From: Chloroflexota bacterium
GTDB lineage: Bacteria; Chloroflexota; UBA6077; FW602-bin22; JAMCYS01
Assembly: GCA_023473795.1 (NCBI GenBank)
Contig: JAMCYS010000152.1
Location: 1 to 25,755, forward strand
Direction of reading: 5' to 3'
DNA length: 25,755 nt
In this document: positions 4,229 through 22,027 of the stretch, piece after piece
How positions within the stretch are numbered: the first letter of the stretch is position 1
Layout of the letters: every line of letters begins with the position of its first letter
Made by a program: the position numbers and the translations under genes
The notes under the pieces: generated by a model
What the model was told of the DNA's origin: nothing
Seen by the model: only the letters and a program-made list of their open reading frames with translations
Databases searched by the model: none

Positions 4229-5395
4229 CTACCAGGCGCGCCGATAGATGTCCAGCACTTCCTTTTCGGTAAGCCTGCGGGGGTTGTTGTCCATCAGGCG
4301 CGCCGTGGCCATGGCGCCGGGCACGAAGGCCTCGACCGCCGAGTCCGGCACGCCCACGTCGCGCATGCGCTGCGGAATGCCCACGTCCTGTGACAACTTG
4401 CGCACCGCCTCCACTGCCTTGTAGGCCGCCTCGCGCGGGCAGAGGCCGTCCAGGCACTCCCCCATCGCCTCGGCGACCTTAGCGAACTTGGGGATGTCGG
4501 CCAGGTAATTGTACTCCAGTACGTAGGGCATCATCATCGCATTGGAAACGCCGTGGGCCACTCGGTACGTGCCGCCCAGCGGGTAGGCCAGGGCGTGCAC
4601 CGAGCCGGCGCTGGCGTTGGCCAGGGCGATGCCGGCGTCGAGGCTGCCCAGGGCCATGTCGTAGCGCGCCTGCAGGTCGCCCCCGCGGCAGACGGCAGTG
4701 CGCAGGCTCTTGGCAATCAGCCGGATGGACTCCAAGGACCACAGCTCGGTCAGCGGCGTGGCCTTGACGGCCGTGTAGGACTCGATGGCGTGCGTGAGGG
4801 CATCCATGCCGGTGGCAGCGGTCACCGAGGGCGGCATGCTCACGGTCAGCAGTGGGTCGACGATGGCCACGTCGGCCAGACAATGCGGGCTCACGGTGCC
4901 GACTTTGAGCTTCTGCTCTACGTCCAGGAAGACCGCGTTGTTAGAGATCTCAGCGCCCGTACCGGCGGTGGTTGCAACCAGTATGTAGGGCAGGCCGCGC
5001 TGGGGCACCTTGTCGATGCCGAAATAGTCGCGGATCGAGCCGCCATTCTTGAGAAGGACGGACACGCCCTTGGTGGTGTCCATGGCGCTGCCGCCGCCGA
5101 CGCCGACGAGCAGGTCGAACCCGCCCTGGCGCACCCACTCCACGCAGCGGTCGAGGCTGGCCACGGTCGGCTCCGGCTCAACCTGGTCGTAGACCTCGGC
5201 TGTCAAACTGGCCTTGGACAGTATGCCCTGTATCTGAGCTGCTAGCCCGGCCTTCGCCACCCCAGGGTCGCAGATGATCACCGGTCGCTTGGCCTGGCAG
5301 CGAACCGCTTCGTCGGCGACCTTGTTGACGGCATCGATGCCAAAGTAGATAGTAGCCGGCAGGCGAAATGGCAGAACCTGAGTCGGTAGCACCAT
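4229..5395 (-). CDS. Iron-containing (group III) alcohol dehydrogenase, e.g. 1,2-/1,3-propanediol or butanol dehydrogenase type
   Basis: The GGGSAMD metal/NAD motif is present, and the His-rich metal site and overall 388-aa length match the Fe-ADH family. Confidence 0.85.
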   Translation of the reverse strand: MVLPTQVLPFRLPATIYFGIDAVNKVADEAVRCQAKRPVIICDPGVAKAGLAAQIQGILSKASLTAEVYDQVEPEPTVASLDRCVEWVRQGGFDLLVGVGGGSAMDTTKGVSVLLKNGGSIRDYFGIDKVPQRGLPYILVATTAGTGAEISNNAVFLDVEQKLKVGTVSPHCLADVAIVDPLLTVSMPPSVTAATGMDALTHAIESYTAVKATPLTELWSLESIRLIAKSLRTAVCRGGDLQARYDMALGSLDAGIALANASAGSVHALAYPLGGTYRVAHGVSNAMMMPYVLEYNYLADIPKFAKVAEAMGECLDGLCPREAAYKAVEAVRKLSQDVGIPQRMRDVGVPDSAVEAFVPGAMATARLMDNNPRRLTEKEVLDIYRRAW

Positions 5396-5592
5396 CGTTC
5401 CCTTCTCCCTATCGCAGTCTGGCCCGCGGCGCTCCGCGGATGAAGCGTGCGGGCGTCCCGCCGCCTAGTTTACATCAGGTGTGCCCGCGACGAAAGGGCA
5501 AGAGTAGCCGGCCGGAAGAACGGACAGTCGCCAGCGGACAGTGCTCCGGGCTGCCTCGTAGCTGCGAAAATGCACTGGCCATGGGACCCGTT

Positions 5593-6003
5593 CTAAGCCG
5601 GCTGGCCGGCCAAACGGGCGCGGATGAAGTTGGCGATGTCGGCAGTGGAGCTGCCGGGGCCGAAGGTCGCCGCCACACCCATTTCCTGCAAGGCGCGCAT
5701 GTCCTCGTCGGGTATGATCCCGCCCACGAGGACGACGATGTCCGTCAGCTGCTTCTGCCGCACCAACTCCATTACGCGCGGTACCAGGTCCATATGCGCC
5801 CCGGAGAGGATGCTCAAGCCAATGACGTCGGCGTCTTCCTGCAGCGCCGACTCGACGACCATTTCGGGGGTCTGCCTGAGCCCGGTGTAGATCACCTCCA
5901 TCCCGGCGTCGCGCAGCGCCCGGGCGAGGACCTTGACCCCCCGGTCGTGGCCATCCAGCCCCGGCTTGGCCAGCAGTACCCTGATTTTGCCTCTCTCAAC
6001 CAT
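5593..6003 (-). CDS. icmB: Coenzyme-B12-binding small subunit of a split acyl-CoA mutase (IcmB-like, 136 aa), with DxHxxG motif (DGHDRG)
   Basis: ATG at 6003..6001 is preceded by GAGAGGTG. The ORF-track start at 6012 is GTG without an RBS. Rossmann-like B12-domain motifs are present ([14 protein letters not shown]). Confidence 0.8.
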
Positions 6004-6037
6004 GGTCCACACCTCTCACGTGCTGAGAGCCGAGGCC

Positions 6038-7711
6038 CTAGAGCACCGGCACCTCCATATAGGATCCGTAGACCTCGCGCAGCGCCTGAGTCATCTCGCC
6101 CAGCGTGCAATAAGCACGCACCGCGTCCAGCAGATAGGGCATCACGTTCTCCCCAGCCGCGGCCGCCTTGCTCAGAGCGCGCAGGCAGCGCTCGGCCTGC
6201 GCCCGGTCGCGCCGGCGGCGCACCTCCGCCAGGCGCGCCAGCTGCCGGCGCTCGCCCTCGGGGTCCATGCGCAGCAGAGGCACCTGCACCGGCTCGTCCG
6301 TGGTAAAGCCGTTGACCCCCACGACGATGCGCTCCCCGCTCTCCACTTCTTGCTGGTAGCGGAACGATGCCTCGGCGATCTCCTGTTGCGGGTAGTTGAC
6401 GCCAATCGCCGCCACCATCCCGCCCAGACGGTCGATGCGCTCGATGTACTCACGCGCCTGGCGCTCCAGCTCGTCGGTCAACGCTTCGACGAAGTACGAT
6501 CCCCCCAATGGATCGACGGTGTTCGTCACGCCGCTCTCATTGGCGATGATCTGCTGAGTGCGTAGGGCCACCCGCACGGCGCTTGCCGAGGGCAGGGCCA
6601 GGGCCTCGTCCATGGAATTAGTGTGCAGGGACTGGGTACCGCCCAGCACCGCCGCCAGGGCCTGCAGGGCCACCCGCACCACGTTGTTCTCCGGCTGCTG
6701 GGCCGTCAACGAACAGCCCGCCGTCTGGGTATGGAAGCGCAGCATCCAGGAGCTCGGGTCCTTGGCGCCGAAGCGCTCGCGCATGATCTTGGCCCATAGC
6801 CGCCGGGCCGCCCGGTACTTGGCGATCTCCTCAAAGAAGTCGCTATGGGCGTTGAAGAAGAACGAGAGCCGAGGGGCGAAGTCATCCAGGGCCAGGCCGC
6901 AGTCGAGCGACGCCTGCACGTAGGCGATGCCATCGGCCAGTGTGAAGGCCAGTTCCTGCGCCGCGGTCGAGCCGGCCTCCCGGATGTGATAGCCGCTGAT
7001 CGACACCGTGTTCCATTTGGGCAGGTGGCGGCTGCCAAATTCGATGGTGTCAATCACCAGTTTGAGCGCCGGCTCGGGCGGAAACAGGAACTCCTTCTGC
7101 GCTGTGTACTCTTTCAGGATGTCGTTCTGAAGGGTGCCGCCGAGCTCACCGAACGGGATGCCCTGCTTCTCGGCCGTCACCAGGTACATCGCCCAGATGA
7201 TGGCCGCTGGGCCGTTGATCGTCATCGAGGTCGTGACCTCGTCGAGGCGGATCCCATCGAAGAGGATTTCCATGTCGGCCAGCGAAGAAACGGCCACTCC
7301 GCACTTGCCGAACTCCCCCAGCGCCTGGGGGTCATCGGTGTCGAGCCCATACAGAGTCGGCATATCGAAAGCCACCGACAGGCCGCTCTCGCCGTGAGAC
7401 AGCAGGTATTTGAAGCGCTCGTTCGTTTCTTCAGCGGCGCCAAAGCCGGCGAACAGGCGCATCGTCCAGAGCCGGCCGCGATACATCGTGGGGTGGACGC
7501 CCCGGGTGAAGGGATACTCGCCGGGGAAACCGATTTCCCGCTGATAGGCGGCGACCTCGTCCGCCCCGGGCTCGTAGAGTCTCTGGGTCTGTACCCCGGA
7601 GATGGTGGTGAACTCAGATCGGCGCTCGGGCAGGCGCTCCAGCGACTTCGCCAGAGTAGTCTTCTCCCAGCGCGCGCGGTCGGCGGCGAGCCGTTCGCGG
7701 TCGTCCTGCAT
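6038..7711 (-). CDS. icmA: Acyl-CoA mutase large (catalytic TIM-barrel) subunit with an isobutyryl-CoA-mutase-type active-site signature. In methylmalonyl-CoA mutase the corresponding positions are Tyr89 and Arg207; here they are Phe (TMRLFAGFG) and Gln ([12 protein letters not shown]).
   Basis: Strong similarity to the methylmalonyl-CoA mutase alpha catalytic domain throughout ([33 protein letters not shown]). Specificity residues were read from the alignment-equivalent motifs. There is no C-terminal B12 domain, so this is a split enzyme. Confidence 0.8.
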
Positions 7712-7728
7712 GGCGGGCCTCCCCTAGC

Positions 7729-7788
7729 TGGGCGCTATACCAGCAATTGCCTGTGAGAAACGCTCTTCAATTTCAAGTATAGCGCCCA
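7729..7788. promoter_or_regulatory. 12-bp perfect inverted repeat TGGGCGCTATAC ... GTATAGCGCCCA flanking a 36-nt, comparatively AT-rich spacer, 18 nt upstream of the icmA start. On the minus strand the distal arm overlaps a TGGTATAGC extended -10-like element.
   Basis: Read directly (7729-7740 and 7777-7788). It lies in the 96-nt gap between the mce stop and the icmA start. Confidence 0.45.
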
Positions 7789-7807
7789 ACCTCAAACGGC
7801 TCCCAAC

Positions 7808-8230
7808 CTAGGTCTCAGGCTCGTGCCCCTTCTCCGCCAGCTCGACGAGCACGCCCCCGGTGGCTTTAGGGTGCAGAAAACCGACCCGCGAGCCGTGCGC
7901 GCCCGGCGCCGCCGCTCCCGAGCCGATCACCGCGCCCCGGGCCGATAGTTCGCCGAGCAGCTCGTCCAAACCTTCCACTTCCAGGCAGATGTGGTGTATG
8001 CCTTCACCACGCTTGTCGAGGTATTTGCCAACGGGGGTGTCCGGGCCGGTCGGCTCGAGCAATTCCAGCGTGGCCTCGCCCAGGGGCAGGAAGGCGACCT
8101 TCACCCCCTGGGCGGGCACGGTTTCGTAGTGATCGGCCGCGAGTCCTAGCGCCTCCTCGTAGAAGCGCACCGCTGCCTCCGCATCCCTGACGGCGATGCC
8201 GACGTGGTCGATCTTCTTGACACGTGGCAT
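7808..8230 (-). CDS. mce: Methylmalonyl-CoA epimerase (VOC/glyoxalase-fold)
   Basis: IDHVGIAVRD...HHICLEV...GGVLVEL metal-ligand pattern and 140-aa size. It is in the same operon context as a mutase. Confidence 0.8.
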   Translation of the reverse strand: MPRVKKIDHVGIAVRDAEAAVRFYEEALGLAADHYETVPAQGVKVAFLPLGEATLELLEPTGPDTPVGKYLDKRGEGIHHICLEVEGLDELLGELSARGAVIGSGAAAPGAHGSRVGFLHPKATGGVLVELAEKGHEPET

Positions 8231-8239
8231 TGGCGGAAC

Positions 8240-9757
8240 CTAGCCCTCGTGCCCGTTGCCGGCAGCCGGGGCCTTGGCAGTTGTGTCTTCCGCCTGCAAG
8301 TCGGCTAACGCCGGTATCTTGCGCAGAACGTCCTGCAACTTGAGCCCGGTGAGCGCCTCGATAACCGCCGGCATCTGGGCCATGATCTCGGTTATGTCCC
8401 GCGTAATCTTAGACGCTCCAGCGCCGTGACCGTCAGATCCGCCAATCATGACGATGCGGTCCGTCTTGCTGAGTGGTTCGGCGACGGCCCTGGCCAGCTC
8501 CGGCAGGCGCTCGACGATCATCTGGATTATGGCCGCCTCGTTGTACTCGTGCCAAGCCTCCGCCTTGCTCGACATAGCCGTCGCCTCGGCCGCGCCACGG
8601 GCCTTGGTCACGTCGGCGGCGGTCAGGCCGCGCGCGCGCTCGATGTCGACCTGCGCCAGGCCCTGCGCCCGCTCGGCGTCGGCCTGGCCCTGGCCCATCA
8701 GCCTTGCCGCCTCGGACTTGCCAGTCGCCTCGGCCCGCAGCTTGTACTGCTCGGCCTCGGCCAGCGTCTGGATACGAGTGCGCTCCGCCTCGGCCGGTTT
8801 CTGGACGTTGGCGACCAGTTCCCGCTCCCGACGGGCAACTTCCTTCTCCTGAACCAGGGTCTCCTGTTCCTTCTGGACTATCTGGACCTTCACCTCTTCG
8901 GCCTTGACGAGCTGCTCCGTCTTGTACTTCTGCAGGTCGTAGGCGAGGTCGGCCTCAGCCTTCTGCTGGTTGACTAGCATGTTGTACTGAGCGACCTTGA
9001 CGTTGTAGTCACGCTGCGACTCAGCAATTTTGGTCTGGGCCTCGATCTCGCCGATCTTGCCCAGCTGTTCGGCCTGCGCCCGCTTGATCTGGGTCTCCCG
9101 AGCGGCCTCGGCCTCGGCGATGGCCGCGTCGCGGCGCACCTCGGCGATGCGCGGCTTGCCCAGGGCCTCCAGGTAGCCCTGCTTGTCGTGCACGTCCTTG
9201 ATGGTGAAACTGATGACGGTGAAGCCCATGTTGCTGAAGTCGGTCGAGGATACTTCCTGTACCCGCTGGGCGAAGGCCTCGCGATTACGATAGACTTCCT
9301 CGACGGTCATCGTACCCATAATGGCCCGCAAGTGGCCCTCGAGGGTTTGCTTGACGACCTCTTTGCGCTCCTCGACGTTCTTGGAGAGGAACTGCTCTGC
9401 CGCGGTCGCGATCGAAACCAGGTCGCTTTGCACTTTGATCTGGGCCACGCCTTCCACGATGATGGGCACACCTTGCGAGGTGTAGACGTCCGGCGTGCCC
9501 ACGTCGATGGTCATCGTCTCCATCGACAGGGTCTTGAACGACTCGACGACCGGCATGACTATCGTGCCGCCGCCGCGCACGATGCGAAAGCCGACGTCCC
9601 GCGCCTGCCCACTCTCGTCGCGCAGCTTGCCGCCCCGACCATAGATGATCAGCGCCTCGTTGGGACCGACCTTACGATAGCGCGAGGCTGCCAACGCTAT
9701 GAGAAGAAAGATGCCTAGGACGATGCCTGCCACTAGCAGCGTGCTGGTGAAATCCAC
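8240..9757 (-). CDS. floT: Flotillin-like SPFH/band-7 protein (FloT/YuaG type) with N-terminal membrane anchor and Ala/Glu-rich coiled coil
   Basis: Close resemblance to B. subtilis YuaG along the SPFH domain (IVRGGGT, IATAAEQFL, GHLRAIMGTMTVEEVYRNRE, LGKPRIAEV). GTG start at 9757. The upstream nfeD partner is present. Confidence 0.9.
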   Translation of the reverse strand: MDFTSTLLVAGIVLGIFLLIALAASRYRKVGPNEALIIYGRGGKLRDESGQARDVGFRIVRGGGTIVMPVVESFKTLSMETMTIDVGTPDVYTSQGVPIIVEGVAQIKVQSDLVSIATAAEQFLSKNVEERKEVVKQTLEGHLRAIMGTMTVEEVYRNREAFAQRVQEVSSTDFSNMGFTVISFTIKDVHDKQGYLEALGKPRIAEVRRDAAIAEAEAARETQIKRAQAEQLGKIGEIEAQTKIAESQRDYNVKVAQYNMLVNQQKAEADLAYDLQKYKTEQLVKAEEVKVQIVQKEQETLVQEKEVARRERELVANVQKPAEAERTRIQTLAEAEQYKLRAEATGKSEAARLMGQGQADAERAQGLAQVDIERARGLTAADVTKARGAAEATAMSSKAEAWHEYNEAAIIQMIVERLPELARAVAEPLSKTDRIVMIGGSDGHGAGASKITRDITEIMAQMPAVIEALTGLKLQDVLRKIPALADLQAEDTTAKAPAAGNGHEG

Positions 9758-9822: not shown

Positions 9823-10449
9823 CTACCCCTCGTCAGAGGCCGAACCGAGGGCCTCGTCCTCCATTGACACTACCTCGGCCACACCCTTGTGTAAGCGTAC
9901 GATCGCCACCCTCGTGCCACTGGCCAAGGGCACGCCGCTGGCAGACCGCGCCGGCAATTGCATGCGGCTGCCACGGGCGGAGAAGACGATCTCGCCCAGC
10001 CCCTCGGCCGGAATGCTGACCCGCACCTTGGCCAGAGCCTGGGCCACCTCTCTCATGTCCGGCGAGCTACTGCCCTGGGCCCTCACTAGCGGCCGCCACA
10101 CCGCTAGGAAGAATGCCCCGGCAACCAGTACCGCCCCGACCGTGGCGAGAAGGAGCGAAAGCCAATCGGGCAGGCCAATATACCTGTAGGTCAACAGGCC
10201 AATGCCCCCCACGGCCAGAGAGAAAGCCGCTATGGTAAGAGAGTTGACCGGGGATACATGGTGGGCGCCGACGTCGTGGCCAGCGTCAAGCTCGTGCCCG
10301 CCGCCCAAGTCGTGCGACAAGTCCACGTCGTGGCCGCCGGCTATGTCGTGGCCGCCCAGACCACCGGCGAGCAAGCCGAACACGCCGTAGCCGAGCCCAA
10401 AGAGGAACGCCACCCAATAGAACAGTTCCAGCCCGTTTAGCCCACCCAT
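9823..10449 (-). CDS. nfeD: NfeD/YuaF-like membrane protein (3 TM segments plus C-terminal OB-fold beta-barrel), partner of flotillin. It contains an unusual His/Asp-rich GHD repeat loop.
   Basis: TM helices plus C-terminal VRVSIPAEGLGEIVFSARGSRMQLPARS...VAIVRLHKGVAEVV OB-like domain. Gene order nfeD-floT matches yuaF-yuaG. Strong RBS GGGAGGAGGG before ATG 10449. Confidence 0.75.
   Translation of the reverse strand: MGGLNGLELFYWVAFLFGLGYGVFGLLAGGLGGHDIAGGHDVDLSHDLGGGHELDAGHDVGAHHVSPVNSLTIAAFSLAVGGIGLLTYRYIGLPDWLSLLLATVGAVLVAGAFFLAVWRPLVRAQGSSSPDMREVAQALAKVRVSIPAEGLGEIVFSARGSRMQLPARSASGVPLASGTRVAIVRLHKGVAEVVSMEDEALGSASDEG
10255..10356 (-). repeat. In-frame nucleotide tandem repeats GTCGTG(G/C)CC(GCC) encoding GHD/HD units (GGHDIAGGHDVDLSHDLGGGHELDAGHDVGAHH) inside nfeD
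   Basis: gtcgtggcc/gtcgtgccc/gtcgtgcga motifs recur about 6 times at roughly 18-21 nt spacing on the plus strand. Their reverse complement encodes Gly-His-Asp. Confidence 0.6.
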
Positions 10450-10472: not shown

Positions 10473-11227
10473 CTAGCCGCGTTTGCCCTCGCGGTACTCC
10501 TGAGCGTAGCGCCGGTTGTTGCTGACCACCTGAGCGGCGAAGTCCCGCAGGTGATTCGTCACCGGCGCCAGCGACCGAGCCCGCTCCGGCGTGTCCACGA
10601 TCGCCCCTGCCGGCACCAGGCGCCCATCCGGTATCTCTACGTCGGAGATGAACGCGCCGTGCCAGACTACGCAGCCGCGTCCGATCGTGCTGTTCACCAC
10701 CATCGTCCGAAAGCCGACGAAAGCACCGTCGCCGATAGCCACCGGGCCGTGCACGAACGCTTGGTGGGCCAAGGATACGTTCTTCCCGACCCAGACGGCA
10801 TACTGCTGGCCGCCCACGACAACCGAGCGCCCTTCCATGGCGTGGACGACGACCCCGTCCTGCACGTTACTACCATCGCCAATGGCTATCGGCGCCCCGC
10901 TGTCACCCCTGATTGAGGACCCCGGGGCGACGAAGACCTCGGCCCCCAATTGTACGTCGCCCACCACGCTCGCGGCAGGACTGATGAAGGCGCCCCGACC
11001 GAGGCGAACGGTGCGACCCACCTCTGCCGCCGGCATGGCGGCTGCCGCGGGTGGCGCGGGCCGGGCCGGAGGAGCAGCGACCGGCGTCTGAGCCGCAAAC
11101 GCCTCGCTCCCTGGGGCATCCGGCTCGGTTAGAGAACGCCCCAGGTTACCCCCGCCAGCCGGCAGGTCTGAGCCCGGCATGGGCATGTAGCCGATGGGCT
11201 GCATGCCCCCTTTGGGTTGGCCCTCGC

Positions 11228-11231
<4 letters not shown>
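10473..11231 (-). CDS. Gamma-class carbonic anhydrase family (left-handed beta-helix, hexapeptide repeat) protein with about 95-aa Pro/Ala-rich low-complexity N-terminal extension; all three Cam-type zinc-ligand His positions conserved
   Basis: [11 protein letters not shown] and [12 protein letters not shown] match the Cam motifs (H81, H117, H122 equivalents). The start ATG 11231..11229 overlaps the upstream mutase stop (ATGA). The ORF-track upstream extension has no RBS and is rejected. Confidence 0.75.
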
Positions 11232-12919
<1,688 letters not shown>

Positions 12920-12930
12920 CCAATCCTCGC

Positions 12931-13461
12931 CTATGAAACGATCGCCAGCACATCCCCGGCGTTCACCGTGGAGCCGGCGCTCACCGGCAAGGAGGTCACC
13001 CGGCCGGCGGCGGTGCTCTTGATCTCGTTTTCCATCTTCATGGCCTCGAGGACCACCAGCCCGGCGCCGTAGGCCACGTTGTCGCCCACTTTGACCTGCA
13101 CGCGCAGGATCTTGCCGGGCATCGGCGCCCGCATCACCGTGCCCGAGGCCGCGGGAGCCGTCGGCGCGGTGGCAGGAGCGGGTGACGTCCGCGGCCCCAC
13201 GGCTGCCGGGGCAGGGCGTGGGGCAGCAGGGGCGAGCGCCGGCGCGGGGCGGGTCGCCGAGTCCAGCCGAACCGCGTAGGTCTTGCCGTCCAGCGTCACC
13301 TGGTCGCCCTTCAGCTCGACCTGGAGCGTCTTGCCGCCCACCTCGACCGTGGCCGAGTTGCCGCGGCGGCGGGCGCTAGCGGGAACCGGTTTGCCGTCGA
13401 CAGTCACCTCGCCCGGTTTGACCGTGACCTCGTAGTCTTTGCCGTCGATCGTTATCTTCAC
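12931..13461 (-). CDS. Biotin carboxyl carrier subunit, transcarboxylase 1.3S / decarboxylase gamma type (N-terminal [12 protein letters not shown] domain, Ala/Pro linker, C-terminal biotinyl domain with EAMKM)
   Basis: AMKM biotinylation motif. The N-terminus resembles the P. shermanii 1.3S and GcdC N-termini. GTG start at 13461. Confidence 0.85.
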
Positions 13462-13476
13462 TGTCGCAACCTCACC

Positions 13477-14961
13477 CTACCTCATCAGTCCCAGACGGCC
13501 GGATAGCTTCCAGCCAGAGAGTCCGGCCAGGGCCTCGGGCACGCGCTCCCGCTGCGCCGGGGCGAGAAACGCCGCGGCAATGGCAGCGACCGTCTCCGCG
13601 TCCAGCTTGGGCTCGGGCTCAACCTCGCCCGCCCGCCGTTTGAAGAACTCCAGGGCCACCTGGGGGAAGATCGCGTAGGAGATCACGTCCTCGTCGCTCT
13701 GCGCATAGGGCTTGGACCCCTCCACGGCCTTGTCCCACTCGGGCTCCAACAGGTCGGCGGGGCGGACGTCGATCGTCTCCTCGCCGTCGATGGTCTTCTC
13801 CTTGATGGCAGGGTCGACCGGAATCGCTGGCCGGCCGTAGAACCCCTTCACGTACAGCTTGACCTCTTTGGGCACCATCTTGTAGCGCTCGCCCAGGAGG
13901 ACGTTCAGCACCGCCTGCGTGCCCACGATCTGACTGGAGGGGGTGACCAAAGGCGGGTAGCCAAGGTCCTGGCGCACCCGCGGCACCTCGGCCAGCACTT
14001 CCTTCAGGCGGTCTTCCGCCTTCTGCTCACGCAGCTGGGAGACTAGGTTAGAGATCATCCCGCCCGGAATCTGGAAGGTGAGCACGTTCGTATCGACGGG
14101 CGCCATACCCATCTCGAACTTGCCGTATTCCTTGCGTACCTTGCCGAAGTACTCCGCGATCTCCGACAGCAAATCGAGGTCGAGGCCCGTGTCGCGAGGC
14201 GTGCCCTTGAGCGCGGCCACAATGCTCTCCGTGGGCGGCTGACCAGAGCCCATCGAGATGCTGGAGATGGAGGTATCGACGACGTCGATGCCCGCTTCCG
14301 CCGCCTTGAGGTAGGCCATCGACGCCATACCGCTGGTGTAGTGGCAGTGCAACTGCACCGGCAGGCCGACCTTCTCCTTCAGCTGCTTGGTAAGATCGTA
14401 TGACTCGTAGGGGTCGATGAGACCGGCCATGTCCTTGATGCAGATCGAATCGGCGCCCATGTCGCGCAGCGTCTTGCCCATCTCCACAAACGTGTCGATG
14501 TTGTGGTAGGGGCTGCGCGTGTAGCAGATCGTCGCCTGCACGTGGCCGCCGACATGCTTAGTCACTTCCATCGCATAGCGCATGTTGCGCACGTCGTTCA
14601 AGGCGTCGAAGATGCGGAAGATGTCCATGCCATTTTCTTTGGCCTTGACGACGAAATGCTCCACGATGTCGTCGGCGTAGTTGCGGTAGCCGACGATGTT
14701 TTGGCCGCGCAACAGCATCTGCAGCTTAGTGTTCTTGAACGCCCCGCGCAGTTGGCGCAGGCGCTCCCAGGGGTCTTCGTTCAAGAAGCGCATGCAACTG
14801 TCGAAAGTCGCGCCGCCCCAGACCTCGAGGGAGTGGTAACCCACCCTGTCCAGCTTCTCGGCAATGGGCAGCATGTGCTCGATGCGCATGCGCGTCGCCA
14901 GCAGCGATTGGTGCGCGTCGCGCAGGATTGTGTCGGTGATGCCGAGCGGGTTCTTCTCCAC
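13477..14961 (-). CDS. Transcarboxylase 5S subunit / oxaloacetate-decarboxylase-alpha-type carboxyltransferase (pyruvate carboxyltransferase TIM barrel, no fused biotinyl domain)
   Basis: ILRDAHQSL, IKDMAG (carbamyl-Lys motif) and LHCHYTSG metal-site motifs. The 494-aa length matches the 5S subunit. Confidence 0.9.
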   Translation of the reverse strand: MEKNPLGITDTILRDAHQSLLATRMRIEHMLPIAEKLDRVGYHSLEVWGGATFDSCMRFLNEDPWERLRQLRGAFKNTKLQMLLRGQNIVGYRNYADDIVEHFVVKAKENGMDIFRIFDALNDVRNMRYAMEVTKHVGGHVQATICYTRSPYHNIDTFVEMGKTLRDMGADSICIKDMAGLIDPYESYDLTKQLKEKVGLPVQLHCHYTSGMASMAYLKAAEAGIDVVDTSISSISMGSGQPPTESIVAALKGTPRDTGLDLDLLSEIAEYFGKVRKEYGKFEMGMAPVDTNVLTFQIPGGMISNLVSQLREQKAEDRLKEVLAEVPRVRQDLGYPPLVTPSSQIVGTQAVLNVLLGERYKMVPKEVKLYVKGFYGRPAIPVDPAIKEKTIDGEETIDVRPADLLEPEWDKAVEGSKPYAQSDEDVISYAIFPQVALEFFKRRAGEVEPEPKLDAETVAAIAAAFLAPAQRERVPEALAGLSGWKLSGRLGLMR

Positions 14962-14979
14962 TGCTTCCTCCTTCCGATC

Positions 14980-16539
14980 CTACAGCGGTATATTGCCGTG
15001 CTTCTTCGGCGGCAGGGTATCGCGTTTGTCCTTGAGCATCTCCAGGGCGGCGATCAGCTTGGGCCTGGTGTAGCGAGGCTGGATCACATCGTCCAACAAG
15101 CCGTGGGCCGCGGCGACGTACGGGTTGGCGAACTTGTCGCGGTACTGCTGCACCTTCTCCTGCAAAGTAGCCTCAGGGTCGGGCGAGGACTCGATCTCCC
15201 GCCGGAAGAGGATGTTGGCCGCCCCGTCGGGGCCCATCACCGCGATTTCGGCCGTGGGCCAGGCGAGGTTGATATCGCCGCGCAGGGCCTTGCTACTCAT
15301 GACGATGTAGGCACCGCCGTAGGCCTTGCGCGTGATCAGCGAAATCTTGGGCACGGTCGCCTCGCTGTAAGCGTAAATCATTTTGGCCCCATGACGAATG
15401 ATACCGCCCTGCTCCTGGTCGAGACCAGGCATGAAGCCCGGCACGTCGGCGATGGTGACGAGCGGCACGTTGAAGCAGTCGCAGAAGCGAACGAAGCGCG
15501 CTGCCTTGTCGGAGGCGTTGATATCGATGACCCCCGCTAGCACCTTGGGCTGCTGCGCCACTACGCCCACCGGCCGCCCGCCGAGACGCGCGAAGCCGAC
15601 GATCATGTTCTGGGCGAACTCCTTGTGGACCTCGAACAGGTCCCCGTCGTCCACGATGCGACCGATCACTTCCAGCATATCGTAGGGTTGGTTAGGGGAA
15701 TCCGGGATCAGCACGTCCAGCTCGGGGTCCGTGCGATCCGCCGGATCGAGCGAGACTCCCAGGGGCGGGTCGTCCATATTGTTGGAGGGCAGGAAGCCGA
15801 GCAGGCGGCGGATGTCCTGCAGGCAGGTCTGCTCGTCCGGCTCGGCGAAATGGGCGACGCCGCTGATGCCGGCGTGCGTCTGTGCCCCGCCCAGCTGATC
15901 GAAGCTGACGTCCTCATGGGTGACCGCCTTGACCACGGCCGGGCCGGTGATAAACATGTGGCTAGTGCCATTGACCATAAACACGAAGTCCGTCAGGGCC
16001 GGCGAGTAGCAGGCGCCGCCGGCCGAGGGGCCGAGGATGGCCGAGACCTGGGGAATGACGCCCGAGGCCAGCGTGTTGCGCAGGAAGATCTCGGCGTAGC
16101 CGGCAAGGCTGAGCACGCCCTCCTGGATGCGCGCGCCGCCGGAGTCGTTCAGCCCGATCAACGGCGCCCCGTTCTTCATCGACAGGTCCATCACCTTGCA
16201 GATCTTGTTGGCATGCACCTCGGACAATGAGCCGCCGAAGACGGTGAAGTCCTGCGAAAATACGTACACCAGTCTGCCGTCCACCTTGCCAAAGCCCGTG
16301 ACCACGCTGTCGCCTAGGTACTGCTGCTCGGCCAGCCCGAAGTCGGTGCAGCGATGCAGGACAAACTGATCCAGCTCGCTGAACGAACCGGGATCGAGCA
16401 AGGCGTCGATCCGTTCGCGGGCGGTCAGCTTGCCTCTCTTGTGCTGCTGCTCGACGCGCTGGGGGCCGCCACCCTGCTCCGCCTGCCGCTGCAGTTCCCG
16501 CAGCTCGGAGATGCGATTGGCCTCAACCATACTGTTCAC
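14980..16539 (-). CDS. Methylmalonyl-CoA carboxyltransferase 12S subunit (propionyl-CoA carboxylase beta family)
   Basis: High similarity to the P. shermanii 12S subunit, including the C-terminal KKHGNIPL. Carboxyltransferase motifs are present ([22 protein letters not shown]). The annotated start is GTG at 16539. ATG at 16530 (MVEANRI) has a better-spaced GAGGTGA RBS and may be the true start. Confidence 0.9.
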
Positions 16540-16563
16540 TCACCTCAATCGGTACTAGGGAGC

Positions 16564-17433
16564 CTAGGTGCCATACTCGTAGAAGCCGCGGCCGGACTTG
16601 CGTCCCAGGTGTCCCGCCTCGACCATCCGGTGTAGCAGAGGGCAGGGGCGGTACTTGGAATCGCCGAAGCCCCGGTGCAGCACCTCCATCACCTGTAAAC
16701 ACACATCCAGACCAATCAGATCGGCCAACTGTAGCGGGCCAAGCGGATGATTCATCCCCAGGTGCATGACGGTGTCGATGGCCTCCCGCTGGGCAACGCC
16801 CTCCATGAGGCAGTAGATGGCTTCGTTGATCATCGGCATGAGCACCCGGTTGGACACGAAGCCTGGATAGTCGTTCACCGCCACCGGCGTCTTGCCCAGG
16901 CGCTCCGCCAGCTGCTGTACCAACCCCATGGTGGCGTCGCTCGTCAGTTCGCCGCGCACCACTTCCACTAGCGCCATCACGGGCACCGGGTTGAAGAAGT
17001 GCATGCCGACCACCTGACCCGGCCGCCGCGTTCCGGCCCCCAAGGTAGTGACGGAGATCGAGGAGGTGTTGGAGGCCAGGACGGCCTCATGGCGGCACAA
17101 GGCGTCCAGGCGCCGGAAGACGTCAATCTTGACCGGCAACTGCTCCACCGCCGCCTCGACCACCAGGTCGCAGCGGGACAGGTCCTCCAAAGACAGAGAA
17201 GGGGCAATGCCGGCCAGCGCCGCCTCGCGTGCCGCCGGTTCGAGGCGCCCCTTGTCCACGGCGCGGTCGAGGTTGCGCCGGATGGTGGCCAGGCCGCGGT
17301 CGAGGGCGGCCCGGTCCACCTCGACCAGGGTCACGGCGAAGCCGGCACCGGCGAACACCTGGGCAATGCCGTTGCCCATAGTACCTGCCCCAACCACCCC
17401 AACCTTCCGAATCTCCTCAGCTTCCATTGCCAT
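16564..17433 (-). CDS. hbd: 3-hydroxybutyryl-CoA / 3-hydroxyacyl-CoA dehydrogenase (NAD-binding)
   Basis: KVGVVGAGTMGNGIAQVFA Rossmann motif and typical Hbd length. The start is probably ATG 17433 or 17427 (AGGAAAGG RBS). The GTG at 17463 in the ORF track is less likely. Confidence 0.85.
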   Translation of the reverse strand: MAMEAEEIRKVGVVGAGTMGNGIAQVFAGAGFAVTLVEVDRAALDRGLATIRRNLDRAVDKGRLEPAAREAALAGIAPSLSLEDLSRCDLVVEAAVEQLPVKIDVFRRLDALCRHEAVLASNTSSISVTTLGAGTRRPGQVVGMHFFNPVPVMALVEVVRGELTSDATMGLVQQLAERLGKTPVAVNDYPGFVSNRVLMPMINEAIYCLMEGVAQREAIDTVMHLGMNHPLGPLQLADLIGLDVCLQVMEVLHRGFGDSKYRPCPLLHRMVEAGHLGRKSGRGFYEYGT

Positions 17434-17483
17434 CCTTTCCTGGTCCAACGGGAGACGAACCACGGATCAACGCGGATCCTGGA

Positions 17484-17573
17484 GGATGAACATGGATGGA
17501 TGAGACACCTCGGAGAGCCGGGACCTCGCCACACGTTCCGTCCTCGCCACACCTCCCTCATCTGTGTTCATCC
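17484..17573. promoter_or_regulatory. 9-bp perfect inverted repeat GGATGAACA ... TGTTCATCC separated by 72 nt that contain two copies of the direct repeat CCTCGCCACAC, in the thiolase-hbd intergenic region
   Basis: Read directly: arms at 17484-17492 and 17565-17573; direct repeats at 17524-17534 and 17542-17552. Confidence 0.4.
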
Positions 17574-17611
17574 GCTCCCAACGGTGTGCATCTGTGGCCG
17601 TTGTCCTCATC

Positions 17612-18802
17612 CTAGGCTAACTCGACGCTCAGGGCGACGGCCTCGCCCCCGCCGAGGCAGGCCACGGCCAGGCCGCGTTCGCCGCCTCGCTGGCGCAAGG
17701 CATAGATCAGTGTCGTCAAGATGCGCGCGCCGCTGGCGCCGATAGGATGGCCCAAGGCCACCGCGCCGCCGTGGACGTTTACCTTCTGCCAATCCCAGCC
17801 CAAGTCCTTGCCGTTGGCCAGCACCTGGGAGGCGAAGGCTTCGTTGATCTCGATGAGGTCGAAATCGTTCAGACCCAGACCGGTCTGGGACAGCAGTTTG
17901 CGAATGGCCAGCGGCGGGGCAGCGAAGAGCAGCAGCGGCTCCAGGGCAGCCGTGGCATAGCCCGTGACGCGCGCCAGCGCGGGCAGGCCGAGCTCCCGGC
18001 CGCGCCCGCCCTCGACTACCACTAGGGCGGCGGCGCCGTCGCTCAGGCCGGGGGCGTTGCCGGCCGTCACCGTGCCGCCCTCCGGCTGGAAGGCCGGCTG
18101 CAGACGCGCGAGCGCCTCCAGGCTCGTGTCGGGGCGGGGCGTCTCGTCGGCGGCGACGACCACGCTGCCCTTCTTCTGCGGCACCTCGACCGGAACGATC
18201 TCCGCCGCGAACCGGCCCGACGACGCCGCGGCGACGGCCTTGCGGTGGCTCGCCAGGGCGAACTCGTCCTGTTCGCGACGGCTAATACCATAGAGCTTGG
18301 CGATGTGTTCGGCGGAGTTGCCCATGTGGTGGTGCTCGAATGAGCACCAGAGGCCATCGTGTACCGTGGCGTCTACGATCTCGCCGTTGCCCAGACGGTA
18401 GCCGGTGCGGGCACGGGGCAGTAGGTAGGGGCCGTTGCTCATGCTCTCCATGCCCCCAGCCACGTAGATGGAGCCGTCTCCGGCCTTGATGGCTTGCGCC
18501 GCCAGCATGACCGCCTTCAGGCCCGAACCGCAGACCTTGTTGACGGTGACGGCCGGCACGCTCACGGGCACACCAGCCCGGACCGCGGCCTGGCGAGCAG
18601 GGGCCATGCCCACGCCCGCCTGGACGACGTTGCCCATTATCACTTCGTCCACGGCGGCGGGGTCGACACCCGCCCGGCGGATAGATTCACGAATGGCGAC
18701 GGCGCCCAACTCGGGCGCCGTTAGTGGTTGGAGGGCACCGAGGAAACGGCCCGTGGGAATGCGCGCGGCACTAGCGATCACAACCTTAGGGGAGTCCGCC
18801 AT
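17612..18802 (-). CDS. Acetyl-CoA C-acetyltransferase (thiolase II)
   Basis: VNKVCGSGLKAV (nucleophilic Cys), GHPIGASGARIL (His) and C-terminal Cys in ACLGGGEAVA. ATG at 18802 with GGGAGGAAGG RBS. The 25-aa ORF-track extension is rejected. Confidence 0.9.
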   Translation of the reverse strand: MADSPKVVIASAARIPTGRFLGALQPLTAPELGAVAIRESIRRAGVDPAAVDEVIMGNVVQAGVGMAPARQAAVRAGVPVSVPAVTVNKVCGSGLKAVMLAAQAIKAGDGSIYVAGGMESMSNGPYLLPRARTGYRLGNGEIVDATVHDGLWCSFEHHHMGNSAEHIAKLYGISRREQDEFALASHRKAVAAASSGRFAAEIVPVEVPQKKGSVVVAADETPRPDTSLEALARLQPAFQPEGGTVTAGNAPGLSDGAAALVVVEGGRGRELGLPALARVTGYATAALEPLLLFAAPPLAIRKLLSQTGLGLNDFDLIEINEAFASQVLANGKDLGWDWQKVNVHGGAVALGHPIGASGARILTTLIYALRQRGGERGLAVACLGGGEAVALSVELA

Positions 18803-18876: not shown

Positions 18877-18963
18877 CAACGCAACCTGCCCCGCCAGAAC
18901 GAAGATCCCCTTCCCGCTAGGCAGGAAGGGGGTTGTCAGTAACCAGCAGATGTTGGTCTGTTG

Positions 18964-19162: not shown

Positions 19163-21130
19163 CTAGCACATCGGCGGGCGCTCGACCATCCTCTTCAATC
19201 GCTCGACGTTGCGACGCAGGGCCTGCAACTCCTTCACCCGGGCGTCGGGATCCTCCAAGGCCTGGTAGATGACTGCCCCGTCGCACTTATCGGGAACAGG
19301 CAGTTCGGCCACGTGGCAGACCGTGGGCACCAGATCGGTGAGCCAGACGTTGCGCTCGATCACCACGCCCTGCCTGATGCCGGGGCCGGCGAACATTATC
19401 AGGCCGCGCAGGTCGCCAAAGCCGAACTTGTTGGTCGTCAGGTAGGGGCCATGCTCCTTGCCGAAGCGTGGGTCCTCGGCGTAGATCACGTCGCCCGCTC
19501 TGGGGCCCCAGATGCCTAAGATACGGGCGTCCTCGTTCTTCAACGCCAGAGCGACCGGGTGCAGGCCGGTCTGGGGATCGACGTACTCGAGGAGGGCTTT
19601 GATGATTTCATCGCGGACCTTCTCGTACTCCTCTCCCGGCTCGACGATGCCCTGTGGGTCTCGGCCCTTGACGTTCACGTAGATGTGAACCGTGCGCTGG
19701 CTCACGGCCTTCGTCTTGGACCAGTCGACTTTCCGCACCTTCGGCATGAGGCCAGCGCCCTTCGTTTCGAGCCCGGCCGCCTTGTCGCCCGGCTCCTCCG
19801 GCACATAGGCCAGCAGGCCGGCCTTCGCCAGAATCGAACCGACGTCGAACTTGTGGCCGCGCGCCTTGACTCCGTGGTCCGACATGACAACCACCAACGC
19901 ATCGTCGCCGGCCGCCTCGATGATCTCGCCCAGGCACCGGTCCACGCCCTGATGCAGCCTTAGCTCGATGTCCTGGTAGTAAGGAATCAGCTCTTGATTC
20001 CGCGCCAGCAGAGGCTCCAGCTCGACCGAGAAGGTGTGGTAGATCCAGTCGATGGTGTGGATGTGGAGGAAATACATATCCCACGGCTTCTGGAAGAGGG
20101 TCTTGGTGGCGTCCACCAGCCAGTTGTGGTGCAGGTCGTAGGCCTCGACCAGCGTCTGGCCGTCGATCCACTCCGCCAGGAAGGCCTCGTAGGCCGTGCG
20201 AGCGGTGGGCAAGCCGCGCTCGGACGTAATCTCTTGCTCCAGCTCGGCCGGGAAGCCCCAGCCCGAGAGAGAGAAGATGCCCGGGCAGTAGACACGGAAC
20301 TGTTGGGCGTCAGGCGAGAGCTCGAGCAACTTGAAGCGCGTCGCCGCCTGCTTGGGGCCCTGCTCTGTCTCGAAGGTATCGTAGACGTTCGGGCTCCACT
20401 CGCCGACCTTGAGGCGAGCGTAGGCGCCGGCCTTGGTCTTGTCGCGGGCGATGACCACCGTATCGAAGGCCGAGCCGCCCGACTTGTCGACCAGCACGTA
20501 CCAGGTTATCGGCTGAACCGGGATCTTGGGCCGCCAGAGGTTGACGTTGACCTTGGCCTCGAGGGCCTGCGGGCCGTGCTCCACGCCCTGCCAGCCGCTA
20601 GCCTTCTGCCACACCACCTCGCTAAAGTGAGGGTAGTACTCTGTGGAGAGCAGTATGTCCTGCGCGAGGAGCGTTGAGGTCAGGTCCTCGATGGGTATGC
20701 CCTCGCGCCAGTCGGTGATGTTCAGGCCATAGCCGGCGATCTGGTAGCCTTCCTTCATCCGCTTGGGCCAGCTGGTGGGCCAGTTCATCACGATGCTGCG
20801 TTTGCCGGCGCGCTCGCCCGCCTCCCAGATGGTCTCAGCCGCGATGTCGCGCGAATCGAAGCCTTGGTGGGTCACATCCAGGGGCGTTCCTGGAGTGTGC
20901 ACATCGAAATCGGTAATGCCGTGGGTGCCCGGCCAGGCGCCCGTGGCGATCGAGGTCCAGTTGGGGGGCGTGATCGTCGGGAAGGGCACCAGGCCATTCT
21001 CACAAAACACGCCGCGGTCCATCAACTTCTTCAGTGCCGGTAGCTTGCCCTCTTGCGCCCATTTGAAGATGGTAGGCGCGACGGGCGAGTCGATGCCCAG
21101 GAACAGCACTTTGCTCGGGGCTTTGCTCAT
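19163..21130 (-). CDS. Alkaline-phosphatase-superfamily protein of the nucleotide pyrophosphatase/phosphodiesterase (NPP, type I phosphodiesterase) family; no signal peptide, so predicted cytoplasmic (655 aa)
   Basis: TITPPNWTSIATGAWPGTHGI matches the NPP nucleophile-Thr motif (TxTxPNHxSIxTG type). ATG at 21130 with GGAGGAG RBS. The 78-aa upstream extension in the ORF track is rejected. Confidence 0.7.
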   Translation of the reverse strand: MSKAPSKVLFLGIDSPVAPTIFKWAQEGKLPALKKLMDRGVFCENGLVPFPTITPPNWTSIATGAWPGTHGITDFDVHTPGTPLDVTHQGFDSRDIAAETIWEAGERAGKRSIVMNWPTSWPKRMKEGYQIAGYGLNITDWREGIPIEDLTSTLLAQDILLSTEYYPHFSEVVWQKASGWQGVEHGPQALEAKVNVNLWRPKIPVQPITWYVLVDKSGGSAFDTVVIARDKTKAGAYARLKVGEWSPNVYDTFETEQGPKQAATRFKLLELSPDAQQFRVYCPGIFSLSGWGFPAELEQEITSERGLPTARTAYEAFLAEWIDGQTLVEAYDLHHNWLVDATKTLFQKPWDMYFLHIHTIDWIYHTFSVELEPLLARNQELIPYYQDIELRLHQGVDRCLGEIIEAAGDDALVVVMSDHGVKARGHKFDVGSILAKAGLLAYVPEEPGDKAAGLETKGAGLMPKVRKVDWSKTKAVSQRTVHIYVNVKGRDPQGIVEPGEEYEKVRDEIIKALLEYVDPQTGLHPVALALKNEDARILGIWGPRAGDVIYAEDPRFGKEHGPYLTTNKFGFGDLRGLIMFAGPGIRQGVVIERNVWLTDLVPTVCHVAELPVPDKCDGAVIYQALEDPDARVKELQALRRNVERLKRMVERPPMC

Positions 21131-21212
21131 CGATCTCTCCTCCATATCTGCTGCCGAAGCGAACCGACCCTCCCCGGGTCCAGTCGCCCAGTGATGCCCG
21201 ACGGCGCCAGAG

Positions 21213-21914
21213 TCAGTCGCCGAACGTGCCGCCGGCGCTGGCCAGCGCGGCCTCCAGGTCTTGCCTGGTGTGCTGGTGATGCCAGCGGAGACGGCGCTCG
21301 GCCTCAGCCGCATCGCCCGCGAGGAAGGCGGCGAGAATCTCCTTGTGCTCCAGGTGGCCGGCAAGCGGTCTGCCGGGCACGTCGAAGGCCCGCCAGCGGA
21401 TCATCAGGAACTGGTCGTGCATGTTCTCGAAAACGCGCAGCAAGCGGCGGTTGCCCGAGGCCTGCACGAGCAGGCGGTGCAACTCCATGTCCAGGCGGCT
21501 GAAGCCCCGCTGATCGCGAGCCGCCACAAGCGGTTCCGCCTCCGCCACCAGCTCCGCGAGGCGACGGTCCAGCCCCGGCGTGCGCCTCTGTAAGGCCCGC
21601 ACGATAGCGTGCGCCTCCAGGACCTCACGGACCTCCAACACCTCGCGAATGTCCTCGGCGGTAATGGAGACGACGACGGCGCCCCGCCGGGGCAGGTACT
21701 GCACCAGGCCCTCCCGTTCCAGGCGCGAGATGGCCTCACGCACCGGCGTGTTGGAGACGCCAATCTGTTCGGCCAGGGCAGCCTCGGTGAGGCGGGAGCC
21801 GGCAGCCAGGGTATTCTCGATGATGGCGGTCTTGAGGGTGGCGTAGACCGAGTCGGTCAGGTTGAGATGGCGCTCGACCCGGGGTAGACTCAACAGCTCC
21901 ACTGGCACCTCCAA
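21213..21914 (-). CDS. GntR-family transcriptional regulator with FadR-type C-terminal (FCD) ligand-binding domain
   Basis: N-terminal wHTH (SRLTEAALAEQIGVSNTPVREAISRLEREGLV) plus C-terminal all-helical FCD-like region. The start may be GTG 21908 (better-spaced GGAAG RBS) rather than TTG 21914. Confidence 0.85.
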   Translation of the reverse strand: MEVPVELLSLPRVERHLNLTDSVYATLKTAIIENTLAAGSRLTEAALAEQIGVSNTPVREAISRLEREGLVQYLPRRGAVVVSITAEDIREVLEVREVLEAHAIVRALQRRTPGLDRRLAELVAEAEPLVAARDQRGFSRLDMELHRLLVQASGNRRLLRVFENMHDQFLMIRWRAFDVPGRPLAGHLEHKEILAAFLAGDAAEAERRLRWHHQHTRQDLEAALASAGGTFGD

Positions 21915-21945
21915 GCTTCCAACGGGGAAAACCGTCTATAGTAGG

Positions 21946-21966
21946 CAGCATACAGCGGGTATGCTG
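21946..21966. promoter_or_regulatory. 8-bp perfect inverted repeat CAGCATAC-agcgg-GTATGCTG between the MFS stop and the GntR start; candidate GntR autoregulatory operator or MFS terminator hairpin
   Basis: Read directly. It is located 32-52 nt upstream of the GntR start codon. Confidence 0.35.
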
Positions 21967-22027
21967 TCCTGTCAAGCAAGGCCAGGGCATCCACCGCTTT
22001 CCGCGGGGGCGCGGCGCCCGGCGACGG

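Follow-up and report, generated by a model that had tools for sequence, protein, structure and literature searches.

A candidate methylmalonyl-CoA:pyruvate carboxyltransferase encoded with split acyl-CoA mutases on a Chloroflexota contig

Introduction

Contig JAMCYS010000152.1 of a Chloroflexota bacterium (GenBank assembly GCA_023473795.1; positions 1 to 25,755 of the forward strand, a stretch of 25,755 nt hereafter called the window) carries adjacent minus-strand genes for a 12S-like carboxyltransferase, a 5S-like carboxyltransferase and a biotin carrier, with spacers of 18 nt and 15 nt, in one row with genes for acyl-CoA mutases and an epimerase. The question raised by this locus is what kind of enzyme the three subunits form: a transcarboxylase, an ATP-dependent carboxylase, or the soluble part of a Na+-translocating decarboxylase. 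The genes (16539..12931) are best read, at somewhat better than even confidence, as encoding a biotin-dependent methylmalonyl-CoA:pyruvate carboxyltransferase (EC 2.1.3.1), a prediction made from the sequence and its neighbourhood. An earlier note on this DNA had held that three features of these components specify a transcarboxylase; the function stands as the most likely one, but the features are not diagnostic, being shared with PccB proteins and with Na+-pump clusters. What supports the assignment is gene context: neither biotin carboxylase nor OAD_beta is found in the window or within ±10 kb in five related loci, and the module of genes recurs.

In the proposed mechanism, a hexamer of the 12S-like protein would move the carboxyl group of (S)-methylmalonyl-CoA to the biotin of the 176-aa carrier, yielding propionyl-CoA, and the 5S-like subunit would pass it from biotin to pyruvate, yielding oxaloacetate; the overall transfer would be reversible, with no requirement for ATP or free CO2. 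The epimerase and a split methylmalonyl-CoA mutase (MCM; a 563-aa large subunit and a 139-aa B12 subunit) would join this step to succinyl-CoA; an isobutyryl-CoA mutase (ICM)-type large subunit, probably with the same B12 subunit, would interconvert isobutyryl-CoA and butyryl-CoA, and thiolase and 3-hydroxybutyryl-CoA dehydrogenase (Hbd) would tie the C4 acyl-CoAs to acetyl-CoA. If the enzyme is active as predicted, flux would run either towards propionate formation or towards propionyl-CoA oxidation. The same gene triad has been read as a propionate or transcarboxylase step in Asgard archaea (PMC7015854) and as a transcarboxylase step in the Pelotomaculum mmc cluster (PMC8892533).

Carboxyltransferase subunits and biotin carrier

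The gene content, the domains, the motifs at active-site positions and the conservation of a module free of biotin carboxylase and beta subunit are observed directly. Among the features of a transcarboxylase, the window holds a 12S-type carboxyltransferase, a 5S-type carboxyltransferase with metal motifs, and a separate carrier with AMKM and N-terminal hairpins.

The 12S-like protein (14980..16539, minus strand; alternative start 16530) is a 516-519 aa member of the MmdA/PccB/12S family, matched over its full length by Carboxyl_trans (PF01039, E 1.5e-199). Its score against the mmdA model TIGR01117 is 813, under the cutoff of 998.8; in full-length alignments with PDB proteins it gives 694-675 bits with PccB proteins and 588 bits with Propionibacterium freudenreichii subsp. 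shermanii (P. shermanii) 12S. The C-terminus KKHGNIPL, which had been offered as a transcarboxylase marker, is present, but the same C-terminus occurs in Thermotoga and Streptomyces PccB; the Propionibacterium 12S protein presumably has a longer C-terminus than the window protein, which ends at KKHGNIPL, the solved chain being truncated. The position of PccB Asp422 was also considered as a marker of substrate and set aside as uninformative, the residue being Ile in the window, Val or Ile in the Ruegeria and Thermotoga PccB proteins, and Ile in the PccB chain 1xnw.

The 5S-like pyruvate/oxaloacetate carboxyltransferase (13477..14961, minus strand) contains HMGL-like (PF00682) and PYC_OADA (PF02436) domains. 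It is 494 aa long and has no biotinyl domain, as previously stated; this absence is of no use as a marker, since 465-470 aa 5S-like proteins lacking a biotin domain occur in Clostridial Na+-pump clusters. The motifs LRDAHQS, IKDMAG and LHCHYTSG align with P. shermanii 5S (1RQB), OadA (2NX9) and PycB (5KS8), and are taken by us to carry the metal ligands, namely Asp, a carbamylated Lys and His-x-His. The protein fails the NCBIfam 5S equivalog NF008984 (611.7, cutoff 827) and is under the cutoff of the oadA model TIGR01108 (731.2 vs 756.5), while it passes NF008985, 'oxaloacetate decarboxylase subunit alpha', at 724.7 against a cutoff of 718; the latter is a naming rule and no test of function. 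Against solved structures it scores 555 bits with PycB, 530 with OadA and 514 with P. shermanii 5S. An identical protein is found on contigs of several metagenome assemblies and in the metagenome-assembled genome (MAG) GCA_027372045.1; among named homologues the nearest (88% identity) belong to Chloroflexota MAGs and carry the annotation 'oxaloacetate decarboxylase subunit alpha'.

The 5S-like protein ends in a tail (residues ~447-494; 13480..13623, minus strand) with a bipartite motif, ETVAAIAAAF ... GWKLSGR, which resembles ACC_epsilon and the C-terminus of OadG/MmdE. The motif is kept in >80 homologues, with the clade consensus E-E-h-V-A-A-I-A-A ... P-W-K-L-A-G-R, and a 12S gene is found at 11 of the 13 tail-bearing loci with enough flanking sequence. 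ACC_epsilon (PF13822) is the only Pfam family that recurs on such tails (4/36, best E 0.0024); the window's own tail, searched alone, has no Pfam match, and a profile search for a solved structure matching the tail returned none. The tail profile matches a stand-alone 90-aa open reading frame (ORF) between the 12S and carrier genes of one surveyed locus, L086 (E 9.4e-5), and the C-terminal part of genuine OAD_gamma proteins; the L086 ORF itself corresponds to the C-terminal part of OAD_gamma, with nothing to match the N-terminal part of the tail profile. The apparent likeness of the tail to epsilon and OadG depends chiefly on these profile matches. Epsilon subunits stabilize complexes built on 12S-type carboxyltransferases (PMC13118682). 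The OadG C-terminus, like epsilon, serves as an assembly peptide for carboxyltransferases of this type, and the tail may be a fused assembly peptide.

The 1.3S-like biotin carboxyl carrier (12931..13461, minus strand; 176 aa) has a Biotin_lipoyl domain (E 5e-19) with the sequence EAMKME and consists, in order, of ~4 tandem hairpin motifs, an Ala/Pro linker and the biotinyl domain. The hairpin motif, xVxVDGxxYxV, occupies residues 1-66 and resembles the N-terminus of 1.3S; two to four tandem copies of this 1.3S-type hairpin are found in the carriers of the window and its relatives (L087, L089, L091 and L092). The actual N-terminus of the carrier is a fair likeness of, but no literal fit to, the one attributed to it by the earlier note, MK(I/L)xxxxNGxxYxV, being two residues shorter and having DG for NG, and the hairpin copy that aligns with canonical carriers begins at residue 54. 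The motif is not specific to transcarboxylases, as carriers starting MRKFxITVNGKSYEVEVEE are encoded in Clostridial Na+-pump decarboxylase clusters. Compared with solved domains, the biotinyl domain is closest to the Pyrococcus horikoshii 'Mmd gamma' protein (61 bits; P. shermanii 1.3S, 35 bits). Both the 5S tail and the carrier's tandem hairpins would fit a physically joined 12S-5S complex, which these two elements would help to hold together.

Gene neighbourhoods and the kind of enzyme

The locus survey covered 80 loci with 5S-like genes among the matches listed, and gene tables of ±10 kb covered five Chloroflexota loci (L087, L089, L090, L091 and L092). The 5S-like genes sit in clusters of several types, so that one protein family serves three kinds of enzyme which sequence alone does not separate. 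Many Clostridial loci have the order mmdA - OAD_gamma - carrier - OAD_beta - 5S-like, and such clusters are Na+-pump decarboxylases; nine loci (L047, L050, L053, L054, L060, L061, L064, L069 and L074) have 5S-carrier-biotin carboxylase clusters, an arrangement that is a split pyruvate carboxylase. Another arrangement is the module of the window, 12S-5S-carrier-MCM(Tyr/Arg)-epimerase, which is found in the five Chloroflexota loci above as well as in L012 and L034, in Bathyarchaeia (L009, L021, L024 and L068), and in Asgard MAGs (Thorarchaeota L011, and L014, an archaeon MAG with the isolate name 'Hermod'). The order 12S-5S-carrier-MCM...epimerase...B12 subunit is kept in L087 (88% identity) and L089 (75%); relatives at 75-88% identity, and also L012, which belongs to a different class, retain 12S-5S-carrier-MCM with 11-18 nt between the genes.

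Among these clusters, the mmdA-oadG-carrier-oadB-5S hybrids (e.g., L048 6291-11383 and L013 6425-11398) suggest that two different carboxyltransferases supply the Na+ pump, and a beta-less variant, 12S-like - carrier - 5S, is seen in L042, L045, L062, L067 and L083.

Pfam and tblastn searches found no biotin carboxylase, OAD_beta (PF03977) or OAD_gamma (PF04277) in the 25.7-kb window, where tblastn with two verified OAD_beta seeds gave short chance matches only; nor is biotin carboxylase or OAD_beta encoded within ±10 kb of the five Chloroflexota loci. In a neighbour-joining tree the window 5S falls in a Chloroflexota/archaeal clade of 12S-linked proteins, apart from the OAD_beta-linked Clostridial clade, and the three characterized references (P. 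shermanii 5S, OadA and PycB) cluster away from it. A grouping of the 5S with decarboxylase alpha subunits, together with a beta subunit nearby, had been named by the earlier note as the outcome that would make the enzyme a decarboxylase; the protein stands outside the beta-linked clade and no beta gene is nearby.

Several observations weigh against a transcarboxylase. The clade that holds the window 5S is recovered in 56/100 bootstraps, which is weak support. Neither carboxyltransferase subunit is specifically related to the Propionibacterium enzyme in sequence comparisons, and the 5S-like protein bears the NCBI model's name 'oxaloacetate decarboxylase subunit alpha'. A probable carbonic anhydrase is translationally coupled to the MCM-type mutase gene, and a pure transcarboxylase has no obvious need for one. 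Finally, relatives of these subunits can belong to ATP-dependent carboxylases: L007 (Chloroflexia; 5S 65% identical) has the order 12S - biotin carboxylase - biotin carboxyl carrier protein (BCCP) - 5S - carrier, and in L024 biotin carboxylase and BCCP genes lie 5 kb upstream of the module. In L007 the second carrier gene, which follows the 5S gene, is broken into two ORFs that overlap in different frames (11443-12037), probably through a frameshift or an assembly error.

The last two points bear on the most probable of the rivals, in which the carrier receives its carboxyl group from bicarbonate through a biotin carboxylase encoded elsewhere, the 12S-like protein being the beta subunit of a propionyl-CoA carboxylase and the 5S-like protein the B subunit of a split pyruvate carboxylase; this is considered unlikely. 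In keeping with it are the biotin carboxylase genes of L007 and L024, the nine 5S-carrier-biotin carboxylase loci (L047 to L074), the greater similarity of the 12S-like protein to PccB structures, and the Cam-type carbonic anhydrase, a possible supplier of bicarbonate, whose gene is coupled to the mutase gene in both the window and L087. However, the window and the ±10 kb around the five Chloroflexota relatives are without biotin carboxylase, a single carrier gene stands among genes for two different carboxyltransferases, and the biotin carboxylase-linked 5S-like proteins lie in separate clades and mostly have fused biotinyl domains; even if a biotin carboxylase were to charge the carrier, transfer of the carboxyl group from one carboxyltransferase to the other would remain possible.

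It is far less probable that acyl-CoA enzymes which act separately have come to lie side by side by chance, with the 12S-like and 5S-like proteins not forming one complex or with one of them inactive. Unrelated genes do occur in the row (carbonic anhydrase, NfeD-like protein and flotillin), three gaps of 96-197 nt interrupt it, and the 12S and 5S genes are 1-2 kb apart in L091, L092 and L011, with other called genes between them in L091 and L092. Against this, the 12S-5S-carrier-MCM order and its short spacers are kept at 75-88% identity and in L012, the catalytic motifs are intact (the 5S metal-ligand motifs and the carrier EAMKME), and phyla of both bacteria and archaea share the module.

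Least probable of all is the reading that public annotation implies, a Na+-translocating methylmalonyl-CoA/oxaloacetate decarboxylase of which these genes supply the soluble components, with the membrane beta subunit encoded elsewhere: it has in its favour the passed NF008985 cutoff and the like naming of close homologues in databases, the many Clostridial homologues in mmdA-oadG-carrier-oadB-5S clusters and the carrier's closeness to an 'Mmd gamma chain', but neither OAD_beta nor a membrane-anchored OAD_gamma is encoded in the window or within ±10 kb in the five Chloroflexota relatives, the tree sets the window 5S apart from the beta-associated clade, the OadG-like motif forms part of a soluble 5S that has no transmembrane helix, and the neighbouring mutase and epimerase genes point to methylmalonyl-CoA conversion.

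In databases the clade is named 'oxaloacetate decarboxylase (Na+ extruding) subunit alpha'; the eight of its loci that were examined (the window, L087, L089-L092, L012 and L034) have no beta subunit in the sequence read. The clade has probably been misnamed systematically, with NCBIfam NF008985 as the source of the error.

Mutases, B12 subunit and epimerase

The MCM-type acyl-CoA mutase large subunit (11228..12919, minus strand; 563 aa; MM_CoA_mutase E 1.3e-228) has the motifs RQYAG and YARGTY, which align with Tyr89 and Arg207 of P. shermanii MCM and bear out its earlier assignment; these residues are cited as determinants of MCM specificity in PMC7238569. The second large subunit (6038..7711, minus strand; 557 aa; MM_CoA_mutase E 1.8e-219) has Phe and Gln at these positions (RLFAG and TAQKEF) and no Asp specific to 2-hydroxyisobutyryl-CoA mutase (HCM). 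Replacement of the MCM Tyr/Arg pair by Phe/Gln is what we take to define ICM, and the protein is predicted, as had been proposed, to be an isobutyryl-CoA mutase-type enzyme. HCM was considered because of the thiolase and Hbd genes near the mutase, and was rejected because neither large subunit has the Ile/Asp pair: HcmA reads RQIAG and ISTDFD, whereas the window mutases have Y or F at the Tyr89 position and LSVAFD. The retention of LSVAFD where HcmA has ISTDFD places the second mutase with ICM and not with HCM.

For these two large subunits the window encodes one B12-binding small subunit (5593..6012, minus strand; 139 aa; B12-binding E 1.3e-28; TIGR00640 171.1 vs a cutoff of 57.45), 25 nt downstream of the ICM-type gene. 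In the closest relatives, L087 and L089, the ICM-type gene is absent and the small subunit is kept with the MCM-type large subunit alone, which makes it the partner of the MCM-type protein. The ICM-type gene is present in L091, L092 and L014; L091 and L014 resemble the window in having both types of large subunit with one small subunit, which may be common to both. The epimerase (7808..8230, minus strand; 140 aa) scores 141.5 with TIGR03081 against a cutoff of 114.95. A domain search and tblastn did not find MeaB in the window; a MeaB gene is nearby in L090 and L091.

The two large-subunit genes share a patch of ~400 nt, at 11660..12064 (minus strand; aa ~286-420) in the MCM-type gene and at ~6473-6877 in the ICM-type gene, in which the nucleotide identity of the paralogues reaches 94% and third-position identity is 78-90% vs 40-60% elsewhere. 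The ICM-type gene is 85-89% identical to the MCM gene of L087 within the patch and 50-60% outside it, which points to gene conversion with the MCM-type gene or its lineage as donor.

A further proposal joins these observations to the transcarboxylase: this lineage would build an enzyme unlike that of Propionibacterium, in which the 5S-like subunit docks on the 12S hexamer through its tail and the carrier bridges both through its 2-4 hairpins, while one small subunit serves both mutases and gene conversion keeps the shared region matched. It is put forward tentatively, as possible and not yet probable.

Comparison with known systems

The P. shermanii transcarboxylase (1ON3, 1RQB and 1DCZ) consists of the same three types of subunit, and like it the window cluster has no biotin carboxylase or membrane subunit; the 5S metal-ligand motifs and the carrier AMKM are conserved between them, and the hairpin of the window carrier is like the N-terminus of 1.3S. 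The label 'Propionibacterium-type' given to the locus is nevertheless not borne out: the window 5S is below the 5S equivalog cutoff, the P. shermanii 5S, 12S and 1.3S subunits rank under other characterized homologues (among them PccB, PycB and OadA), and the tree places the 5S elsewhere. The window 5S-like protein also differs in carrying the epsilon/OadG-like tail. The Propionibacterium 1.3S protein presumably has 123 aa and one hairpin copy, vs 176 aa and ~4 copies in the window carrier.

The published precedent is the mmc cluster of Pelotomaculum thermopropionicum and related syntrophic propionate oxidizers, which encodes a split MCM (mmcE/F), an epimerase (mmcG), a 12S-type protein (mmcH), an epsilon subunit (mmcI), a carrier (mmcJ) and a 5S protein (mmcL) (PMC8892533). 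The window likewise joins a split MCM, an epimerase, a 12S-type protein, a carrier and a 5S in one cluster. In contrast, genes for succinyl-CoA synthetase, fumarase and malate dehydrogenase also belong to the mmc cluster, joined in Pelotomaculum but not Desulfofundulus by pyruvate:ferredoxin oxidoreductase (PMC8892533), and all of these are absent from the window; the window adds thiolase, Hbd, the ICM-type mutase, iron-containing alcohol dehydrogenase (Fe-ADH), carbonic anhydrase and NfeD/flotillin, and its epsilon-like element is fused to the 5S protein, whereas epsilon is a separate gene in mmc. The arrangement had been called unusually compact, a description that does not hold because the module recurs in many MAGs and mmc precedes it. 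The claim that the array encodes most of a Wood-Werkman cycle was likewise too broad: transcarboxylase, mutase and epimerase account for 3 of ~7 steps, and no malate dehydrogenase, fumarase, fumarate reductase or succinate/propionate CoA transferase is found among the window genes.

The Na+ decarboxylases (MmdABCDE and OadABG; the Clostridial loci L048 and L013) have homologous carboxyltransferase subunits and a carrier, and share with the window the carrier N-terminal motif and the OadG-like 'EELVAVIAAAVA ... W..AR' motif; they differ in that the window is without OAD_beta and without transmembrane gamma/delta subunits, and its 5S lies in another clade. The split mutases (archaeal-type MCM, Streptomyces cinnamonensis IcmA/IcmB and Aquincola tertiaricarbonis HcmA/HcmB, 4R3U) have, like the window, a large subunit of ~560 aa and a separate B12 subunit of ~140 aa, and HcmA is the best PDB match of both window large subunits; the window differs in having one small subunit for two large ones, no MeaB, no HCM Ile/Asp pair, and ~400 nt of the ICM-type gene converted from the MCM-type gene.

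The kind of cluster is thus already known, and the finding is a sound annotation together with some assembly features that are possibly new and a problem of database naming. If the assignment is true, many Chloroflexota, Bathyarchaeia and Asgard genomes hold an ATP-independent link between propionyl-CoA and succinyl-CoA under the label 'oxaloacetate decarboxylase subunit alpha', and such a label distorts metabolic reconstructions of how propionate is formed and oxidized in sediments and digesters. The three uses of the family are told apart better by gene context than by current models, the rule being 12S, a tailed 5S and a carrier where beta subunit and biotin carboxylase are both absent. The tail, the carrier repeats and the shared small subunit offer ideas on complex assembly; they refine known enzymology and represent no new kind of system.

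Layout of the row and its other genes

The row is made up of 13 minus-strand genes, unbroken from 18802 to 4229, in a window with a GC content of 60-72% (1-kb windows). The genes named by the earlier note are all present there as ORFs with domain matches, and the three intergenic gaps it named as putative boundaries between at least four transcription units (17434-17611, 7712-7807 and 5396-5592) are real; its array contiguous on one strand is correct as to the row, but three further genes that it does not mention, for a gamma-carbonic anhydrase, an NfeD-like protein and a flotillin, lie within. The likely upstream boundary of the row is a terminator-like hairpin (18907..18931, minus strand; 11-bp stem, 8 G-C pairs) that separates the thiolase gene from the phosphodiesterase gene upstream of it; a promoter and terminator scan of the three gaps gave no hairpin and nothing useful, and an Rfam scan of the window gave no riboswitch or other RNA.

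The thiolase (acetyl-CoA C-acyltransferase; 17612..18802, minus strand; 396 aa) has Thiolase_N/C domains and scores 456.8 with TIGR01930 (cutoff 240.55); the longest ORF begins at 18877, and gene callers on identical contigs place the start at 18802. Hbd (16564..17427, minus strand; 287 aa) has 3HCDH_N/3HCDH domains and scores 432.2 with NF004474 (cutoff 408), its ORF being open upstream to 17463. The row ends with Fe-ADH (4229..5395, minus strand; 388 aa; Fe-ADH and ADH_Fe_C domains), which is under all NCBIfam equivalog cutoffs and is assigned no substrate.

The Cam/CcmM-type gamma-carbonic anhydrase (10473..11231, minus strand; 252 aa) matches NF053794 and NF040597, and its ATG start shares bases with the stop codon that ends the MCM-type mutase gene (ATGA). 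Compared with Cam and CcmM209, the HAME and SLAHQxxVHGP motifs are kept and the Cam RSDEG reads RGDSG; in Cam numbering, we take the three His ligands to be held and E62 to be replaced by Ser. The gene is conserved in L087 and not in L089. The protein has a Pro/Ala-rich N-terminal region of ~70 aa and no signal peptide.

The NfeD-like membrane protein (9823..10449, minus strand; 208 aa) has a His/Asp/Gly-rich loop and no Pfam match of its own, while its positional counterpart in L089 has a PF25842 (NfeD_TM) domain. The flotillin, a 505-aa FloT-like SPFH protein (8240..9757, minus strand; Band_7 and Flot domains), scores 495.8 bits with NF058507, under the cutoff of 700. We know of no functional link between this pair and the neighbouring enzymes; the pair lies between mutase and epimerase in the window and in the same place in L087 (14566-16799) and L089 (13974-16049), at 75-88% identity, and the epimerase start is 9 nt past the flotillin stop.

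The row is flanked by genes at 1171-3701 (plus strand), 19163-23254 (minus strand), 23435-24634 (plus strand) and 24631-25551 (minus strand). They encode a GlcD-like FAD oxidase and a CCG iron-sulfur protein, which are lactate or glycolate dehydrogenase-like, a 733-aa phosphodiesterase-family protein, a GntR/FCD regulator, a major facilitator superfamily (MFS) transporter, RecF and a patatin-like lipase.

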